The notes under the pieces were generated by a model that saw only the letters and a list, made by a program, of their open reading frames with translations, made no database searches and was not told where the DNA came from. The position numbers and the translations under genes are program-made. A stretch of 63,989 nucleotides of DNA, counting the filler, from an uncultured bacterium (GTDB lineage Bacteria > Hinthialibacterota > Hinthialibacteria > Hinthialibacterales > Hinthialibacteraceae), in the NCBI GenBank assembly GCA_964449065.1. It is 8 parts of 8 records of this genome, joined end to end, with 100 filler letters (N's around TTAATTAATTAA, not from the genome) between each part and the next. Parts side by side here need not be neighbours in the genome. Positions count along the whole stretch, not along the records: positions 58,117 to 63,989 come from CAYVAZ010000326.1; 7 more parts are not named here. One strand, 5' to 3'. Below, piece after piece: positions 8,259 to 63,989 of this stretch (its first letter is position 1; each line of letters starts with the position of its first letter).

Positions 8259-8358
8259 NNNNNNNNNNNNNNNNNNNNNNNNNNNNNNNNNNNNNNNNNN
8301 NNTTAATTAATTAANNNNNNNNNNNNNNNNNNNNNNNNNNNNNNNNNNNNNNNNNNNN
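8259..8358. other. artificial contig spacer
   Basis: N44-TTAATTAATTAA-N44; also at 16606-16705, 24932-25031, 33216-33315, 41497-41596, 49763-49862, 58017-58116. Confidence 0.98.
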
Positions 8359-16605: not shown

Positions 16606-16885
16606 NNNNNNNNNNNNNNNNNNNNNNNNNNNNNNNNNNNNNNNNNNNNTTAATTAATTAANNNNNNNNNNNNNNNNNNNNNNNNNNNNNNNNNNNNNNN
16701 NNNNNGGCATTACCCACAGGGATATGATTGCGAAAGAATTTTTAATGATAATTTAAAAGATCCTTTGGCGGAGTAAAAATAATATGAAACGTCCATGATA
16801 AAATAATTATGATTTTAACACACACGAGCATGATTATTTTATCATGGTAAGTTCCATCTGACCACTAAAAATTAAAAATAAACAG

Positions 16886-24869: not shown

Positions 24870-25205
24870 TTGATAAAAATAACAACAACATGAATACACA
24901 AAGAATACTGATACTTTCGGGATGTTTGCTANNNNNNNNNNNNNNNNNNNNNNNNNNNNNNNNNNNNNNNNNNNNTTAATTAATTAANNNNNNNNNNNNN
25001 NNNNNNNNNNNNNNNNNNNNNNNNNNNNNNNATCATTGATTGCGTAACATCAGTTATTTAGTGACTATCAAAACGGATTTAAATCTCGCAAAAATACCTA
25101 CCGTATAGAATTTTGCGTACCATGAGTTCAGTAAATTACAGACAAGTTTACCCATAGTTCCGGCGGGTTAAAGCGCTGTACCAAAAGATACCCCAAAACG
25201 GATTG

Positions 25206-33215: not shown

Positions 33216-33644
33216 NNNNNNNNNNNNNNNNNNNNNNNNNNNNNNNNNNNNNNNNNNNNTTAATTAATTAANNNNNNNNNNNNNNNNNNNNNNNNNNNNN
33301 NNNNNNNNNNNNNNNTGATATAAAGTATGAAGACCATTGGATGAATTGGCTGGCGACGGGGACACATCATGGCACAGAATGAGAAATGGATTTGTATAGA
33401 GATCGTGAACAGTAAAAACAATAAGACGATGAAACTTTATCATCCGCCAAAAGATGGTGCTGCTGGAGAAGATGTTGATCGGGATTGCTTTATCCCATAA
33501 AAAAACTCTTATAAAATCTCTCGTTATTACAACAAAACTCTTCGCATACCAACCTCCATGTTCATCCCGGGAAGTCATCCTTTCTGATTTTCACACCAAT
33601 CCGTCCGCTCGCGTGCACTAGAAAATAGGACTGGATAATATGAC

Positions 33645-41496: not shown

Positions 41497-41676
41497 NNNN
41501 NNNNNNNNNNNNNNNNNNNNNNNNNNNNNNNNNNNNNNNNTTAATTAATTAANNNNNNNNNNNNNNNNNNNNNNNNNNNNNNNNNNNNNNNNNNNNCCCT
41601 TGTTAAGGGGGGCTAGGGGGGATCAATACCCGTCAATAAAACGTTGACACTTTAAAGGATTCAAACAAGGGAACCC

Positions 41677-49654: not shown

Positions 49655-50025
49655 ATCGTAAGGCAATGTATAAACCTAAAAAAAGCAGTTGCTATTGAAA
49701 AGTATGCCATAACTTTTTGAATATAATATAATTATGAAATGCGGAGCAGTTGAAAAATAATCNNNNNNNNNNNNNNNNNNNNNNNNNNNNNNNNNNNNNN
49801 NNNNNNTTAATTAATTAANNNNNNNNNNNNNNNNNNNNNNNNNNNNNNNNNNNNNNNNNNNNCGCTCGGTGCTTCAATCCCTCCCCTAACCCCTCCCAAC
49901 TTTGGGAGGGGGAATTTCTCTTCAAGCGGCTGACCTATGACAATATTTCATACTCCTTGCCTTATCCCGCAAGTTCATGGCACAATGATAACGCAAGACA
50001 AATTGTGTATGAAAGGGCCTGTAAC

Positions 50026-58016: not shown

Positions 58017-58145
58017 NNNNNNNNNNNNNNNNNNNNNNNNNNNNNNNNNNNNNNNNNNNNTTAATTAATTAANNNNNNNNNNNNNNNNNNNNNNNNNNNN
58101 NNNNNNNNNNNNNNNNCGAGATTTGTAATTTGTACTGTTTGTATC

Positions 58146-59855
58146 TTGTGTTTCATACCGTTTAGCGCCATAAACGCCGTAACAGATGACCTCAAAGAAC
58201 TCAAGAAATTGCTTCATGGCCGGATGGGCCGGGAAGCTACGGTGGTAACATTTATGGGAGTTTCATGCCCGGTATCCAACCGTTATGTACCCCGCTTGAA
58301 TGAATTGTCCAAGACTTATGGCAGCCAAGGGATTGCCTTCATTGGGTTTAACTCCAATCCGGGTGAAACGGCTTTAGAAACGGCTCTTCATGCGGAAAAA
58401 TACGATCTCCATTTTCCTGTCTATAAAGATGTTCATCACAACGCCGCGGATTATTTTGGCGCCCAAAAAACACCGGAAGTCTTTCTCATCGATAAACAGG
58501 GCGCGATTCAATACGAAGGGCGGATAGACGGGCAATACGGTGTCGGGCACGCCACGCTGCCGAAACAAGGACGTTATGACCTAAAGGTCGCGATCGATGA
58601 AGTGCTGGCGGGCAAAAAAGTCAGCCAGCCCAAAACACAAGCCATCGGTTGTGTATTGACCCGTGATTATGATTCACAACCCGAAATTACTTACAGCAAG
58701 CATATATCCCGCATCATGCAAAACAACTGCCAAACATGCCACCGGCCGGATGGCGTCGCCGAATTTTATCCCTGGATGGATTATGACGATGTGCGCGCTA
58801 TGGCAGGGATGATTAAGCAAGTTGTGATCGAAGAGCGTATGCCGCCTTGGCACGCCGACCCCCGGTACGGGGTGTTTTCCAATGACCGCAGTATGAGCAA
58901 GGAAGATAGAAACGCTCTCATCGCCTGGGTTGATGCCGGCAGCCCGGAAGGGGATACAGCCAATTTGCCGGAACCGAAAACCTACCCATCCCAACACTTT
59001 ACCATTGGTGAACCGGATCATATCATCAGGATGCCGCAAGAATTTGATGTCCCGGCGGACGGCGTTGTGGATTATCAATACTTCATGATTGAGCAAGAAG
59101 TGAAAGAAGATTTGTGGATTCAAAAGGCCGAGGCCATTATGGACAGCCCCGCCGTGCACCACATCATTTTGTTTTGGGTTCCGCCGGGTGGCGATCCCCG
59201 CAAAAACCGAAACATGTTAGTCGGTACCGCGCCCGGAGATATGCCGCTCGATTTGCCGGACGGCATGGCGATTCATGTCCCAAAAGGCTCACGGTTTTTG
59301 ATTGAGATGCATTACACGCCCATCGGCCGCCCCGTGACCGACCGTTCGTTTATCGGCTTGATCAAGGCAAAAGAAGAGGTTGACCGGGTTGTGTATGGCA
59401 ATCCGATGGGGAGACACGACTTTTCCATCCCCCCGGGGAAAGCCGATCATAAAGAAATTTCCAAATTCAACGTTCTGGAAGACATTGAAGTGGTTTCGTT
59501 TATGCCGCACATGCACGTTCGGGGCAAAAGTTGGAAGTACACGGCTCTCTATCCGGACGGCCGCGAAGAGGTTTTGCTGTATGTCCCCAACTACGATTTC
59601 AATTGGCAAAGCGTGTACATGTACGAAAAAAACCCGGTGCTGCCCAAAGGCACAACGATTGTTTGTGAAGCGGTATGGGATAACTCAGCGGAGAACCCCT
59701 ACAACCCCGACCCAGCAAAGACCGTACGTTACGGAGAACAAACTTGGGAAGAAATGATGTTCGGTTTTATGCAATATGTTCACGTGGATAAGAAGTTTCA
59801 AGACAACCGCGCCCTATCGAGGATGGATGGCAAAAAGAAAAGAAAGCGGTCGTAA
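58146..59855 (+). CDS. redoxin + c-type haem + copper type II monooxygenase-like fusion protein
   Basis: SCPVS, TPEVF, CQTCH, MPPW, VHHIIL, MPHMH.RGK, YDFNWQ, EMM; start uncertain near contig edge. Confidence 0.82.
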   Translation: MCFIPFSAINAVTDDLKELKKLLHGRMGREATVVTFMGVSCPVSNRYVPRLNELSKTYGSQGIAFIGFNSNPGETALETALHAEKYDLHFPVYKDVHHNAADYFGAQKTPEVFLIDKQGAIQYEGRIDGQYGVGHATLPKQGRYDLKVAIDEVLAGKKVSQPKTQAIGCVLTRDYDSQPEITYSKHISRIMQNNCQTCHRPDGVAEFYPWMDYDDVRAMAGMIKQVVIEERMPPWHADPRYGVFSNDRSMSKEDRNALIAWVDAGSPEGDTANLPEPKTYPSQHFTIGEPDHIIRMPQEFDVPADGVVDYQYFMIEQEVKEDLWIQKAEAIMDSPAVHHIILFWVPPGGDPRKNRNMLVGTAPGDMPLDLPDGMAIHVPKGSRFLIEMHYTPIGRPVTDRSFIGLIKAKEEVDRVVYGNPMGRHDFSIPPGKADHKEISKFNVLEDIEVVSFMPHMHVRGKSWKYTALYPDGREEVLLYVPNYDFNWQSVYMYEKNPVLPKGTTIVCEAVWDNSAENPYNPDPAKTVRYGEQTWEEMMFGFMQYVHVDKKFQDNRALSRMDGKKKRKRS

Positions 59856-59912
59856 ACCAAACGATGTAAGTTGAATCGTCTTGTCGTGAATAAGGATGAA
59901 TGTAGATCATTG

Positions 59913-60071
59913 GAAAAAACGCGGATCAAAGATTAGCGGATCAATATTCGGATGTCTTCCAGAGACTTGGCTTGTCTGCAAAGACAGGCAAACCGTTTTG
60001 GAATGCCCTACCAAACCTTGATATCCAGCGTGCTGCACCGCTACGTCACCGGGGATTTAAAAGAGAAGTAA
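59913..60071 (+). pseudogene. BrnA/CopG-like antitoxin remnant
   Basis: KD*RINIRMSSRDL...GMPYQTLISSVLHRYVTG with TAG at 59934-59936. Confidence 0.65.
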
Positions 60072-60178
60072 TTTTCCGGCCAATCTTAAAGGCAGACTTT
60101 GCTTGCCTTTGGCAGCCAAACAGCCTTCTTGAAACTTTCCAAATTTATCCACGTAATGGTTGATTTTGATCACACCAA

Positions 60179-61333
60179 CTACCGCAACTTCACCTGCTTC
60201 ATCAATTTCCGCAGGGATTCAAGGTTTTGCTTCCGCTCAGGATCAGCGAAATGCTCGCGGACGGGGGCGAGCAAGTCGATCAGGCTCTGCGAGACCGCCG
60301 CTTTTAAATCCATGGGGTGGAGTTCTTTCTTACCAAAGCAGTCGGTGAGTTCTTCGTAGGTCTCAAAAGTCAGGTTGCCGCCGTGTTCTTCCTTACGCTC
60401 AATATGCAGCGGGCCGCGGTGCAGCCCGAATACCATGCGCTTGGTCCAATCCAGTACCGGGTTGAAGCCCACTTCGCCTTCGGGGCAGAAGGCCTTTTTG
60501 ATTTTGCGCTTGATGTCGTCCGGCTCATCGGTGACAAACACAGCCGTATCCGGCTTGGATTTGCTCATCTTCATCTTGGCCAGCATGTCTTTAACCTTTT
60601 CAGGCTCAATCGGCCATACCGGGGGCTTGCCCAGCCCCACCAGCAGCGGGTGATGAATGGCGACCGGCGTGATCTTTTTGCCGTCGTGCGTCAGCGGCAG
60701 GGTTTTCATCTGGTTCGCCACATTGGTTGCCAGCACATGCGCTTTGCGCTGATCCATGCCCGCGTGCATGATATTCACCCCCAGCGCGTAGACATCGGCC
60801 ACCTGCATGGGCGGGTAGATCAACTTGGCGAAATCAACCGCGTCGCCTTCCTCACGTCCCATAATGGTAATCGAACGCAGAATCCGCTTGAGCGAAGTGT
60901 TCTTGCACACTTCAATAAACGCCGTCCAAAATTCGGGTTTGTTGTTGTAGAGTTCAGAGCCCAGCACGACATTAAGTTGCTCCGGGTCGCCGCCCAGCGC
61001 TTTTAAACAGGCTTTGAGGCCTTCGGCAAAATAGCCGTATGCCACGTTTCGAATGGTTTCAACATCGCCGCCCAGTTTGTCGTTAATCCAACTGTGGTAA
61101 TCGGCCAAAAACAGCGTGCATTCCACCCCCGCCTTTTGCAGGTTCGCCACCACCGACATGCATTGAATGCCGGTGCCGAGATGAATCTCGCCGGATATCT
61201 CAAAGCCGATGTAATGGCGCAGGGGAACATCTTTCTCCAAATACTCTTGCAGGCGTTCTTCGGTCAGAATTTCTTCGGTGAATTCTTTGATCAAGTCAAA
61301 GCGTTCTTGAGTGCTGATGGCCGTTGTTGTCAT
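60179..61333 (-). CDS. tyrS: tyrosyl-tRNA synthetase, archaeal type
   Basis: HYIGFEISGEIHLGTG, ADYHSWINDKLGGD, LIYPPMQVAD, AGMDQRKAH, KMSKSKP, AFCP, LHPMDLK; 384 aa, no S4 domain. Confidence 0.95.
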   Translation of the reverse strand: MTTTAISTQERFDLIKEFTEEILTEERLQEYLEKDVPLRHYIGFEISGEIHLGTGIQCMSVVANLQKAGVECTLFLADYHSWINDKLGGDVETIRNVAYGYFAEGLKACLKALGGDPEQLNVVLGSELYNNKPEFWTAFIEVCKNTSLKRILRSITIMGREEGDAVDFAKLIYPPMQVADVYALGVNIMHAGMDQRKAHVLATNVANQMKTLPLTHDGKKITPVAIHHPLLVGLGKPPVWPIEPEKVKDMLAKMKMSKSKPDTAVFVTDEPDDIKRKIKKAFCPEGEVGFNPVLDWTKRMVFGLHRGPLHIERKEEHGGNLTFETYEELTDCFGKKELHPMDLKAAVSQSLIDLLAPVREHFADPERKQNLESLRKLMKQVKLR

Positions 61334-61378
61334 CGGTGATCGCCGTCAAATGGGATTGGGTTTGTTAAAAAGATAAAG

Positions 61379-61461
61379 TCCAGGGGGTAGGATTTGAACC
61401 TACGTACTCGTACGAGAACGGATTTACAGTCCGTCGCCTTTAACCACTCGGCCACCCCTGG
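61379..61461 (-). tRNA. tRNA-Tyr(GUA) with C1:G72, A73 and long variable arm
   Basis: CCAGGGG TG GCCGAGTGGTTAAAGGC G ACGGA CTGTAAA TCCGT TCTCGTACGAGTAC GTAGG TTCAAAT CCTAC CCCCTGG A; no encoded CCA. Confidence 0.96.
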
Positions 61462-61496
61462 ATTTTGGATATGCCGGTTAAAATCCTGAAACAATC

Positions 61497-61525
61497 AGTA
61501 TATTTACAAAGCCTAAAAGTTTCAA
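61497..61525 (-). promoter_or_regulatory. sigma-70 promoter for tRNA-Tyr-tyrS
   Basis: TTGAAA-N17-TATACT on the minus strand, 35 nt upstream of the tRNA. Confidence 0.65.
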
Positions 61526-61600
61526 CTGGTGGAGTATTTTCTTTGGCAATCCCGGATTGTCAAGCCGAAGGTTTATCCAACGGCTTACGTGGCGGTTTAT

Positions 61601-61629
61601 GTGACAATCCGGGAATTGGTGACTATACT
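61601..61629 (+). promoter_or_regulatory. divergent sigma-70 promoter candidate
   Basis: GTGACA-N17-TATACT upstream of the NtrC-family gene. Confidence 0.5.
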
Positions 61630-61666
61630 GCCAGTAGATCCAAACCGAACGTGAAACGGCAACAAT

Positions 61667-63055
61667 ATGAGTAACGTAGACCGCGGAAAAATATTGGTCG
61701 TTGATGACGAAAAGGGCATGTGCCACATCCTGAACCGCATGCTGACCGACGAGGGCTATGACGTGCAAACCGCCGTTTGCGGCGAGGACGCGCTGAAGAT
61801 TTTGGAGAAAAACACCTTCGATGCCGCCATGGTGGATATCCGCATGCCGGGGATGAGCGGGCTGGATTTGTTGGAGCATATCCATAGGGATTCGCCGGAT
61901 ACATCGGTGGTGATGATGACCGCGTTCGGCACCATTGAAACCGCCGTCAACGCCATGAAACGCGGGGCGTATGAATACATCACCAAGCCGTTCAACAACG
62001 ATGAAGTCATTCACATATTGAACAACGCGCTGGAGCGCAAGCAGCTCATCGACCGCAACCGCTACCTCACCGAAACGCTGGAAGAACGGCATCAGCTTTC
62101 GGGGATCATCGGGCAGAGCGATGCCATGCAGTCCTGCTTCCGCATGGTGGAAAAGGTGGCCCCGACCGGCAGCACGGTTTTGATTCTGGGAGAAAGCGGC
62201 ACTGGAAAAGAACTCTTCGCGCGCGCGATCCATCAGCATTCCAACCGCAAGGATGAGAAATTCATGGCGGTAAACTGCGGCGCCCTGCCCCGCGACCTGA
62301 TCGAAAGTGAACTATTCGGGCATGAGAAGGGGGCGTTTTCCGGAGCGCATAAACGCAAGATCGGGCTAATGGAATCGGCGCATAAGGGGACCATCTTTCT
62401 GGATGAAATCGGTGATCTGCCGCTGGAACTGCAAGTAAAACTTTTGCGCGTACTGGAATCGCACGAAGTACGCCGGGTCGGCAGTGTGGAACCCATCACT
62501 ATTGACGCGCGCGTGGTGGCCGCCACCAACCGCGATTTGCAGGATGATGTGCAATCCGGCACCTTCCGTGAGGATTTGTTCTTTCGCCTGTCGATTGTGG
62601 ATATCAGCATCCCGCCATTGCGCGAACGGAAGGATGACATCCCGGTATTGATCGACTATTTTATCGAAAAATTCAATGACAAGATGAACCGCAGCGTGAC
62701 CGGGATATCCGAAGAGGTAATGCGTGCGTTTATGCAGCATCACTGGCCTGGCAATGTGCGCGAACTGGAAAATGTAGTGCAGCGCTGCATGGTGCTGCGC
62801 GAATCGGGAGTGGTTCAACTGGAAGATTTGCCGTCATCCATCAAAGCGTCGCAGGAAACCGAGGCCCCGCTGGACATTGACCCTCAAGCCATCTCGCTGC
62901 AGGAAGCGCGGGAAGCGTTTGAGAAGAAGTACCTCAAAAAACTGCTGGAAATGAATGATGGGAATGTCACGCAATCCGCCCAACTCGCGGGCATCAGCCG
63001 GCGGCACTTGCAGGAATTGATGAAAAAGTACGGTCTGCGCCCGAAAGATGAGTGA
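61667..63055 (+). CDS. NtrC-family sigma-54 response regulator
   Basis: REC (VVDDE, DIRMP), GESGTGKE, GAFSGA, FLDEIG, WPGNVREL, Fis-type HTH. Confidence 0.95.
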   Translation: MSNVDRGKILVVDDEKGMCHILNRMLTDEGYDVQTAVCGEDALKILEKNTFDAAMVDIRMPGMSGLDLLEHIHRDSPDTSVVMMTAFGTIETAVNAMKRGAYEYITKPFNNDEVIHILNNALERKQLIDRNRYLTETLEERHQLSGIIGQSDAMQSCFRMVEKVAPTGSTVLILGESGTGKELFARAIHQHSNRKDEKFMAVNCGALPRDLIESELFGHEKGAFSGAHKRKIGLMESAHKGTIFLDEIGDLPLELQVKLLRVLESHEVRRVGSVEPITIDARVVAATNRDLQDDVQSGTFREDLFFRLSIVDISIPPLRERKDDIPVLIDYFIEKFNDKMNRSVTGISEEVMRAFMQHHWPGNVRELENVVQRCMVLRESGVVQLEDLPSSIKASQETEAPLDIDPQAISLQEAREAFEKKYLKKLLEMNDGNVTQSAQLAGISRRHLQELMKKYGLRPKDE

Positions 63056-63059
63056 TGAA

Positions 63060-63473
63060 TTATGAACACCAGTTCTCAACTTGAAGGTTTGTAATGCGGC
63101 GAAAATGAGATTCGTTGTTTGTTACGATAACCAAATCATGTGTGATAGCAGTAGCGGCAATTAAAATATCAGCATCACCAACCAATTCACCTCTACGATA
63201 AAGATCTGAGTATATTTTGGCTGCTTCTATGATGGTGGAGTCGGACAAGGGTATGATGCGGCTTGTAGAGCATAATTTATCAAACAATTCTTGTTGTTTG
63301 ATTGCTTCTTTGGCAAGCAGCCCCCGGTAGATTTCGTATTTTGTAATAATGGAAAAAGTAAACCGGCTGTAATCGTTTAAATAGGATTGAGCATTGTCTA
63401 ATACAATGGGGTTTTTACGCATTACCAGCGACAAAATGTCCGTATCAAGCATCACTGGCGCAAGTTTTGTCAT
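63060..63473 (-). CDS. vapC: VapC PIN-domain toxin
   Basis: MLDTDIL, DILIAATA, VTNNESHF..I..L.VENW. Confidence 0.92.
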   Translation of the reverse strand: MTKLAPVMLDTDILSLVMRKNPIVLDNAQSYLNDYSRFTFSIITKYEIYRGLLAKEAIKQQELFDKLCSTSRIIPLSDSTIIEAAKIYSDLYRRGELVGDADILIAATAITHDLVIVTNNESHFRRITNLQVENWCS

Positions 63474-63712
63474 GGAGCAATCCTTTTGTCAAAGAAATTT
63501 TCACGCCTTTGAATATGTTGTTCAATCGCATCAATCTCATCTTCGCTGAGACCTTCATAAACTTGCGTGGCTAAAGAAAGTACATTGTCTTGTTTTTCCA
63601 ATGGTTCTACTACAATACGTACCTTTTGCCCTTCTTCAAGAGTGATACTCTCAGGAGTAACCGGGCGAAAACCACCATGCTCATAGACAGCTTCGATTGT
63701 TTCTGTTGTCAT
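63470..63712 (-). CDS. AF2212/DUF104-like antitoxin
   Basis: TIEAVYEHGGFRP...LEEGQKVRIVV; 4-nt overlap with vapC. Confidence 0.85.
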   Translation of the reverse strand: MTTETIEAVYEHGGFRPVTPESITLEEGQKVRIVVEPLEKQDNVLSLATQVYEGLSEDEIDAIEQHIQRRENFFDKRIAP

Positions 63713-63770
63713 TTTTTTACCTCATAATATTTAGATTATCCAGGCTAAACGACTTGAATCAAGAGATAAC

Positions 63771-63945
63771 TCACCGCTGGTAGACACATACTTTTCCCAC
63801 CATGCGCCGAGCCATTTCCTCTTTACTAAGGAGCATGTCCGACATCTTCTCACTGATGTGCAAAGCGAAGCAGCGCTTAACCGCCACAGCCGTCACCTCT
63901 TCCAAAACCCTTCCTCTTCAAGAAAATCATCGGAACGGAACGTGT
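63771..63945 (-). pseudogene. degraded XRE/HigA-like antitoxin remnant
   Basis: Frameshifted pieces DDFLEEEG / LEEVTAVAVKR...LSKEEMARRM. Confidence 0.5.
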
Positions 63946-63989
63946 CAAGAGTTATGAGACACCTCTTTGTCGAAATTAACGAGCAATTC

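Follow-up and report, generated by a model that had tools for sequence, protein, structure and literature searches.

An archaeal-type tyrosyl-tRNA synthetase linked to a C1:G72 tRNA-Tyr replaces the bacterial tyrosine system in the family Hinthialibacteraceae

Introduction

The G1:C72 versus C1:G72 difference in tRNA-Tyr is a textbook domain-level identity barrier, and the orthogonal pair most widely used to expand the genetic code depends on this split. Here we describe a tRNA-Tyr(GUA) gene carrying the C1:G72 pair and, next to it, a tyrS gene for an archaeal-type tyrosyl-tRNA synthetase (TyrRS), both from an uncultured bacterium of the family Hinthialibacteraceae. The locus lies in a stretch of 63,989 bases, referred to as the window, taken from a metagenome-assembled genome (MAG).

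The closest described cases are those of Mukai, Reynolds, Crnkovic, and Soll in 2017 (Life 7:8; PMC5370408), who reported an archaea/eukarya-type TyrRS together with a C1-G72 tRNA-Tyr, often with a variable arm (V-arm), in bacteria of the candidate phyla radiation (CPR), a precedent that the original prediction for this locus had correctly named. The CPR phyla in that paper are Parcubacteria, Microgenomates, Dojkabacteria, and Katanobacteria only; OLB16, Omnitroph-, Caldiseric-, and Planctomycet- are absent from it as words, and it calls the CPR cases the first evidence for archaeal Tyr identity in Bacteria. For the Methanocaldococcus jannaschii complex, PMC1934993 states that C1 is contacted by Arg174 and, via water, by Arg132, and G72 by Lys175. 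It also gives C1:G72 and A73 as the strongest identity elements of M. jannaschii tRNA-Tyr and ascribes the missing cross-reaction between domains to the C1:G72 versus G1:C72 difference.

The locus described here resembles the CPR cases in that an archaeal-type TyrRS and a C1:G72 tRNA-Tyr with a bacterial variable arm occur in a bacterium, and the CPR authors likewise concluded that a bacterial tRNA had adapted to an enzyme transferred from a DPANN-like source (PMC5370408). In contrast to those cases, the host family is non-CPR, with genomes of 4.2-8.4 Mb, and its TyrRS form a clade apart from the CPR clades that were sampled. Moreover, the switch is fixed in all 20 sampled species, whereas sister families keep the bacterial system. 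A literature search, with coverage that lacked most subscription journals, returned no report of a Tyr identity switch outside CPR and no paper on archaeal-type TyrRS in Chloroflexota or Dormibacterota; "tRNA" and "tyrosyl" are both absent from the paper describing the Hinthialibacterota phylum. The phenomenon is already published for CPR, and what is new here is its occurrence in a non-CPR, large-genome lineage, the locus's own points being family-wide fixation with intact sister families, a two-pair change in the tRNA, and a conserved bacterial promoter.

An archaeal-type TyrRS

The product of the window's tyrS gene (Table 1) matches the tyrosine--tRNA ligase model NF006330/PRK08560 over residues 8-370 with 405.6 bits against a cut-off of 220. 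The bacterial model TIGR00234 (TyrS/TyrZ), in contrast, gives 107.4 bits, below its cut-off of 113.8, and aligns through model positions 8-231 of 406 only, which is the catalytic part. Nor is the enzyme a tryptophanyl-tRNA synthetase (TrpRS), as TIGR00233 gives it 83.8 bits, below the cut-off of 176.75. The assignment to archaeal-type TyrRS made in the original prediction is therefore upheld. The genome has just one further class Ic synthetase, an ordinary bacterial TrpRS on contig C197 (TIGR00233, 343 bits).

Among solved structures, the best matches to the enzyme are archaeal TyrRS: 2cyc_A (425 bits), 7fg6_A (371), 2cya_A (263), and 1j1u_A (186). The first of these (375 amino acids) we take to be a Pyrococcus-type TyrRS, the organism reportedly being given by Kuratani et al. 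in 2006. The window enzyme resembles it over residues 9-369, falls in the same length class, has the HIGH and KMSKS motifs, and likewise lacks an S4-like domain. Unlike 2cyc_A, it is bacterially encoded behind a bacterial promoter, sits on a long stem branch (0.72), and ends in a short basic C-terminal tail, ...KVKLR, that is common to the family. HLGT, its version of HIGH, and KMSKS are invariant in an alignment of 13 bacterial and archaeal members.

With M. jannaschii TyrRS (1j1u_A), the window enzyme shares the enzyme family, and the residues that contact C1:G72 can be matched by coordinates. When residues 140-215 are used as the query, positions 5-66 pair with 1j1u_A 123-183, and R153, R196, and K197, all invariant in the same 13-sequence alignment, fall on M. 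jannaschii Arg132, Arg174, and Lys175. The tRNAs of the two systems differ, as that of M. jannaschii is class I with a short variable loop, whereas the window tRNA is a full bacterial class-II tRNA-Tyr. The S4-like C-terminal domain that binds the variable arm is absent from the window enzyme, for which Pfam gives tRNA-synt_1b alone. Nothing in the enzyme would then hold the variable arm, which is apparently tolerated, as in many CPR cases.

Replacement of the bacterial system across one family

To establish how far the archaeal-type enzyme extends, 26 species genomes of the window's order were compared, of which 20, from 18 genera, belong to the window's own family. These are 82-99% complete and include assemblies of 8 and 20 contigs and of 98-99% completeness. 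All 20 carry an archaeal-type TyrRS, 67-72% identical to that of the window; it is found in none of the six genomes of the sister families f2 and f3 and in none of nine from other families of the class. Bacterial tyrS shows the opposite pattern. A match over the cut-off is seen in 0/20 genomes of the family versus 6/6 of the sister families and 8/9 from the rest of the class, where the miss is a 68%-complete genome. Because the bacterial gene exceeds the cut-off in all six sister genomes and in none of the 20 family members, this is a replacement of the bacterial Tyr system and not a supplementation; the original prediction had left both open, and its first alternative holds while the second does not.

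Homologues of 71-95% identity are labelled Candidatus Hinthialibacter sp., Candidatus Omnitrophota bacterium, or simply "bacterium"; the protein with the Hinthialibacter label shares 95% identity with the enzyme of one family genome (G005). The host lineage is non-CPR, being placed by NCBI in Hinthialibacterota (OLB16), and its genome sizes are in keeping with the earlier remark that the contig does not look CPR-like.

A bacterial tRNA-Tyr with its first two pairs inverted

The tRNA-Tyr(GUA) gene on the minus strand was placed at 61378-61461 by ARAGORN and at 61379-61461 by Rfam RF00005 (65.1 bits, E 2.4e-13). Direct reading of the sequence puts C1 at 61461, G72 at 61380, and A73 at 61379, so that the anticodon, strand, and C1:G72 pair first proposed are all borne out. 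The acceptor stem is CCAGGGG/CCCCUGG, and a long variable arm gives the tRNA its bacterial class-II shape. Assembled pieces from two metagenome runs match the contig with 0 differences.

In 18/20 family genomes, tyrS is immediately preceded on its own strand by a tRNA-Tyr gene; in the remaining two the contig ends at or inside tyrS. All 18 tRNAs have C1:G72, C2:G71, A3:U70, and A73; 17 share CCAGGGG/CCCCUGG-A73, and one has a compensated change of G7:C66 to A7:U66. By comparison, the acceptor stem is GGAGGGG/CCCCUCC in sister family f2, GGGGGGG in f3, and GGGGGGA in f5, which are relatives within the class. The family stem is thus the f2 stem with the first two pairs inverted, positions 3-7 being identical. 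Outside pairs 1 and 2, mean body identity to the family tRNAs is 0.85 for f2 (maximum, 0.92), 0.84 for f3, 0.82 for f5, 0.80 for unrelated bacteria, and 0.70 for the V-arm C1:G72 tRNAs of CPR. The simplest reading of these sequences is that the lineage's own tRNA-Tyr was re-keyed by a flip of the first two pairs with the bacterial body kept; re-keying of the tRNA as such had been suggested in the original prediction. As the sister families retain the bacterial system, the change in the tRNA can be pinned to these two inverted base pairs.

At the base of the anticodon stem, G31:C39 is found in 16/17 family tRNA-Tyr, and A31:U39 is found in the window tRNA and in all outgroup bacteria.

Proposed course of the takeover and its significance

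We consider it highly probable that, in the ancestor of the family, a transferred archaeal-type TyrRS displaced the bacterial one, that the native tRNA was re-keyed, and that the two genes are most likely co-transcribed. The enzyme would have been acquired horizontally, in the common ancestor of Hinthialibacteraceae; it belongs to the Pyrococcus-like subfamily, now mostly in DPANN and Asgard archaea, and is predicted to read C1:G72 and A73 through the conserved Arg/Arg-Lys contacts. An enzyme that reads these positions and has no S4-like domain would account for inversion of the first two acceptor pairs, so that the lineage's own class-II tRNA-Tyr would have gone from G1:C72 to C1:G72 and from G2:C71 to C2:G71 with the remainder unchanged. 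The tRNA and tyrS would be transcribed together from a conserved TTGACA-N16-xAAAAT promoter. RNase P and a 3' endonuclease would release the tRNA from this transcript before CCA is added to it.

Several points weigh against this reading. The placement of R153, R196, and K197 on the M. jannaschii residues is by aligned coordinates. The gradient in body identity that favors native descent of the tRNA is shallow, reaching 0.80 even for unrelated bacteria, because bacterial tRNA-Tyr is conserved in general. No shared open reading frame (ORF) was found between the family tRNA-tyrS loci and the tRNA-Tyr loci of the sister families (E 1e-8, about 1.5 kb), and without such flanking synteny, insertion beside the native tRNA gene is not demonstrable. 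The genomes compared are all MAGs or species representatives. A T-rich run stands right after the tRNA in 17/17 family loci and could terminate or attenuate transcription. Lastly, a tree in which the family and the Chloroflexota and Dormibacterota enzymes form one clade is not rejected by an approximately unbiased (AU) test (p 0.67), and the enzyme may have come either straight from an archaeon or by way of another bacterium.

The comparison amounts to a natural experiment, with the bacterial enzyme and GGAGGGG in the sister families versus the archaeal enzyme and CCAGGGG in the family, the body being otherwise unchanged; what change in the tRNA, at the least, goes with a synthetase takeover can be read directly from it. 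It also indicates that synthetase takeovers are not confined to the reduced, symbiotic genomes of CPR. The pair is bacterially promoted, with a tRNA already shaped for bacterial processing, EF-Tu, and ribosomes, and may be a candidate orthogonal pair. However, cross-charging of the re-keyed tRNA by bacterial TyrRS is a real possibility judging from its sequence: the tRNA differs from a bacterial substrate at essentially two base pairs, and orthogonality would therefore be less assured than for archaeal tRNAs.

A conserved promoter upstream of the tRNA

Family loci share a sigma-70-type promoter upstream of the tRNA, represented in the window by TTGACA-N16-GAAAAT (Table 1). An exact TTGACA, usually preceded by CC, lies within 260 nt (80-224 nt) upstream of the tRNA in 14/18 family loci, and xA(A/G)AAT follows 16-17 nt after it in 11 of those 14. 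By the scan rule, a promoter-like site occurs at most 120 nt upstream in 11/17 loci, versus 2.1 expected from shuffles. The -10 box of this element is unusual, CAAAAT instead of TATAAT, and may reflect the promoter consensus of the Hinthialibacterota phylum.

The original prediction had instead named TTGAAA-N17-TATACT as the promoter. This sequence is present, but the number of promoter-like sites in 59800-61800 is within chance (3 versus 1.7 +/- 1.5 in shuffles), and it is the other site, not this one, whose position is conserved among relatives.

The gap of 45 nt between the tRNA and tyrS that was first reported is confirmed, and no terminator-like hairpin is called in it. Across the family, the spacers are 21-210 nt (median, 55), with both genes on the same strand in 17/17 loci, and the flanking genes vary between members while the pair stays together, which suggests that it is the linkage that is being kept. 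Apart from RF00005, no match to any Rfam family, T-box included, was found in 59800-61900 (E up to 1). Given the short spacers, the lack of a hairpin, and the conserved promoter upstream of the tRNA, co-transcription of the tRNA and tyrS from that promoter is likely.

Among the alternatives, the one that survives best is that the two genes are transcribed separately, the T-run ending the tRNA transcript and tyrS having its own start. The T-rich run that follows A73 in every locus speaks for it, spacers of 112 and 210 nt in two genomes could hold a promoter, and the window's own spacer is 45 nt. However, 6/17 spacers are only 21-39 nt, which leaves no room for a separate sigma-70 promoter plus a leader and ribosome-binding site; the window spacer has no hairpin-plus-T terminator; and the only conserved promoter sits upstream of the tRNA. 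We regard separate transcription as unlikely, although it keeps a substantial minority share of our confidence.

Origin of the enzyme and of the pair

A careful tree of 87 TyrRS sequences, unrooted and without Thermococcales or another outgroup, was used to place the enzyme. The family TyrRS form a 100/100 clade on a long stem (0.72 changes per column). Nearest to them is the TyrRS of a MAG labelled Planctomycetota (L032; 62% identity), with a support of 88/95 that is not starred. Together with L032, the family joins a fork of unresolved order whose other members are an unclassified archaeon, an Asgard clade, and a large clade, mostly DPANN, with a CPR clade inside it. A separate 100/95 clade holds 22 sequences from Chloroflexota, Dormibacterota, and one "Planctomycetales". 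The bacteria/archaea label changes four times on the tree (bootstrap range, 3-4), and the nearest named relatives of the enzyme outside the family are DPANN and Asgard archaea. An origin separate from the Chloroflexota/Dormibacterota clade, as given by a quick tree, was dropped in view of the AU test, the constrained tree being 12.7 lnL units better than the quick one.

No TyrRS other than the archaeal-type enzyme was found in two complete Chloroflexota chromosomes, two Dormibacterota genomes, or the genome of L032, with bacterial tyrS over the cut-off in 0/5 of these. Of the best 80 loci in the genome collection, 15/35 assessable bacterial ones have a C1:G72 tRNA-Tyr immediately before tyrS versus 0/44 archaeal ones, and excluding the family, the order tRNA-Tyr then tyrS is seen in 10/30 bacterial loci with the archaeal-type enzyme; kin in these counts are not independent, and some bacterial upstream flanks are incomplete. 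These bacterial loci represent at least five lineages (the family, Anaerolineae, Dormibacterota, and two CPR groups), and linkage seems to be characteristic of bacterial recipients. Unlike the V-arm tRNA of the family, the tRNA next to tyrS in Chloroflexota and Dormibacterota has only a short variable loop. BLAST with tRNA-Tyr queries returned only tRNA-Cys, -Thr, and -Gln in the two complete Chloroflexota chromosomes and the L032 genome.

More broadly, archaeal Tyr identity may recur in ordinary bacteria, among them Hinthialibacteraceae and lineages of Chloroflexota and Dormibacterota, as a linked, bacterial-promoter-driven cassette whose linkage is selected and which possibly spreads from bacterium to bacterium, an idea that we put forward tentatively and hold to be rather doubtful. 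If it is true, the tRNA and the foreign tyrS would be useless or harmful apart during a takeover, and linkage would be selected for that reason; the specificity of the Hinthialibacter pair would then rest on two base pairs of an otherwise bacterial tRNA.

A related alternative for the family itself is that the tRNA and tyrS were imported together as a ready-made cassette from an already re-keyed bacterium, which would make the tRNA foreign. Adjacency of the two genes in every assessable family genome fits such an import, as do the same order in a third of the other bacterial loci and in none of the archaeal ones, the bacterial MAG that supplies the nearest TyrRS, the joint clade with Chloroflexota and Dormibacterota that is not rejected, and the lack of synteny linking the family locus to the sister families' tRNA-Tyr loci. 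The tRNA itself argues otherwise: its body is closest to the sister families and furthest from the V-arm C1:G72 tRNAs of CPR, and acceptor positions 3-7 are the same as in f2. Furthermore, a similar V-arm tRNA-Tyr was not found in the L032 genome with a family tRNA query, and the Chloroflexota and Dormibacterota cassettes have the short-loop tRNAs noted above. Taken together, import of the whole cassette is improbable, and re-keying of the native tRNA remains the preferred account.

A TyrRS with the label "Caldisericia bacterium" (41 member sequences) shares 91% identity with that of a Woesearchaeota MAG; rather than a further bacterial holder, it is probably an archaeal contig binned in error.

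Search for a second tyrosine system in the genome

The original prediction called for a search of the MAG and its relatives for a second bacterial tyrS and a G1:C72 tRNA-Tyr. As described above, no bacterial tyrS exceeds the cut-off in the 20 family genomes, and the sole G1:C72 tRNA-Tyr of the MAG lies on contig C410 (4.1 kb), which has a GC content of 66% and a tetranucleotide correlation of -0.04 and is a foreign contaminant contig in the bin. No second tRNA-Tyr is present in the 19 family relatives, in which the weaker second matches are tRNA-Ser(GCU). That the archaeal-type pair is merely supplementary, beside an ordinary bacterial system missed by the assemblies, could draw on the 86.7% completeness of the MAG, on the C410 tRNA, and on certain CPR bacteria in which a bacterial Trp system coexists with an archaeal-type one (Mukai et al., PMC5370408). 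It is very improbable, given the absence of bacterial tyrS over the cut-off even from the 98-99% complete and the 8- and 20-contig genomes, the foreign composition of C410, and the lack of a second tRNA-Tyr in the relatives.

C410 bears, at 1-351, a Thr-Tyr(G1:C72)-Gly tRNA cluster, which is a common bacterial arrangement and could be mistaken for evidence of a second Tyr system. We also considered whether an ORF on contig C281 (410-586, minus strand), with a match to the C-terminal, variable-arm-binding part of TIGR00234 (E 3.7e-9), might be what is left of the displaced tyrS; it was rejected as a free-standing S4-domain ORF of 58 amino acids. This ORF lies among small, packed ORFs on a phage-like contig of 41% GC.

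The contig and its neighboring genes

The window consists of eight contigs of the MAG (C224-C230 and C326) with N spacers between them, at 8259-8358, 16606-16705, 24932-25031, 33216-33315, 41497-41596, 49763-49862, and 58017-58116. As it is a concatenation, gene neighborhood can be read within one contig only. The MAG (5.22 Mb in 515 contigs) has an estimated contamination of 2.8%. C326 is native in composition, with a GC content of 49.8% versus 47.5% genome-wide and a tetranucleotide correlation to the genome of 0.917, the same value as the median across 179 contigs of 4-8 kb. One of the difference-free run pieces bridges 61243-61668, a stretch that begins within tyrS, takes in the tRNA, and reaches the regulator gene's start. 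Both runs are probably the MAG's own source, hence a consistency check rather than independent support; the pieces on C326 are short, at about 5x depth, and among those listed, none spans C326 and 59976-60154 is uncovered.

The neighbors of tRNA-tyrS on C326 are bacterial, namely, a sigma-54 regulator, an AhpC/redoxin-cytochrome c fusion, and a VapC toxin with its partner; the first two had been named in the original prediction and do lie on the same 5,873-bp contig. Archaeal contamination or a chimeric assembly, which a short contig (5.9 kb) in a MAG of 515 pieces with some estimated contamination and DPANN and Asgard archaea as the nearest named enzyme relatives might suggest, is hardly credible in the face of the native composition, these neighbors, the bacterial class-II shape of the tRNA, the presence of the gene in 20/20 family genomes, once on a 1.85-Mb contig, and the pieces of two runs that bridge tyrS, tRNA, and regulator start without differences.

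Table 1. Features of the tRNA-Tyr-tyrS locus and its contig, in window coordinates
Feature	Position	Strand	Details
Contig C326 (CAYVAZ010000326.1), 5873 bp	58117..63989		Sole part of the window bearing on the finding
tyrS, archaeal-type TyrRS, 384 aa	60179-61333	-	HLGT (HIGH-like) at 51-54, KMSKS at 255-259
T-rich trailer/spacer, 45 nt, tRNA to tyrS ATG	61334..61378	-	Read from the sequence
tRNA-Tyr(GUA), class II	61379..61461	-	C1:G72, C2:G71, A3:U70, A73, no encoded CCA
Second promoter-like site, TTGAAA-N17-TATACT	61497..61525	-	35 nt upstream of tRNA; 10/12 match
Conserved sigma-70-type promoter, TTGACA-N16-GAAAAT	61536..61563	-	About 75 nt upstream of tRNA; scan 10/12
Redoxin/cytochrome fusion, 569 aa	58146-59855	+	AhpC/redoxin, haem-binding cytochrome c motif, weak copper-monooxygenase-C-like domain
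Sigma-54 activator (response regulator)	61667-63055	+	
VapC-like PIN toxin, 137 aa, and 80-aa upstream ORF	63060-63712	-	Toxin below NCBIfam cut-offs

The gene for the redoxin/cytochrome fusion is convergent with tyrS. The VapC-like toxin ORF overlaps the 80-amino-acid ORF upstream of it by 4 bases, and the latter is presumably the antitoxin.

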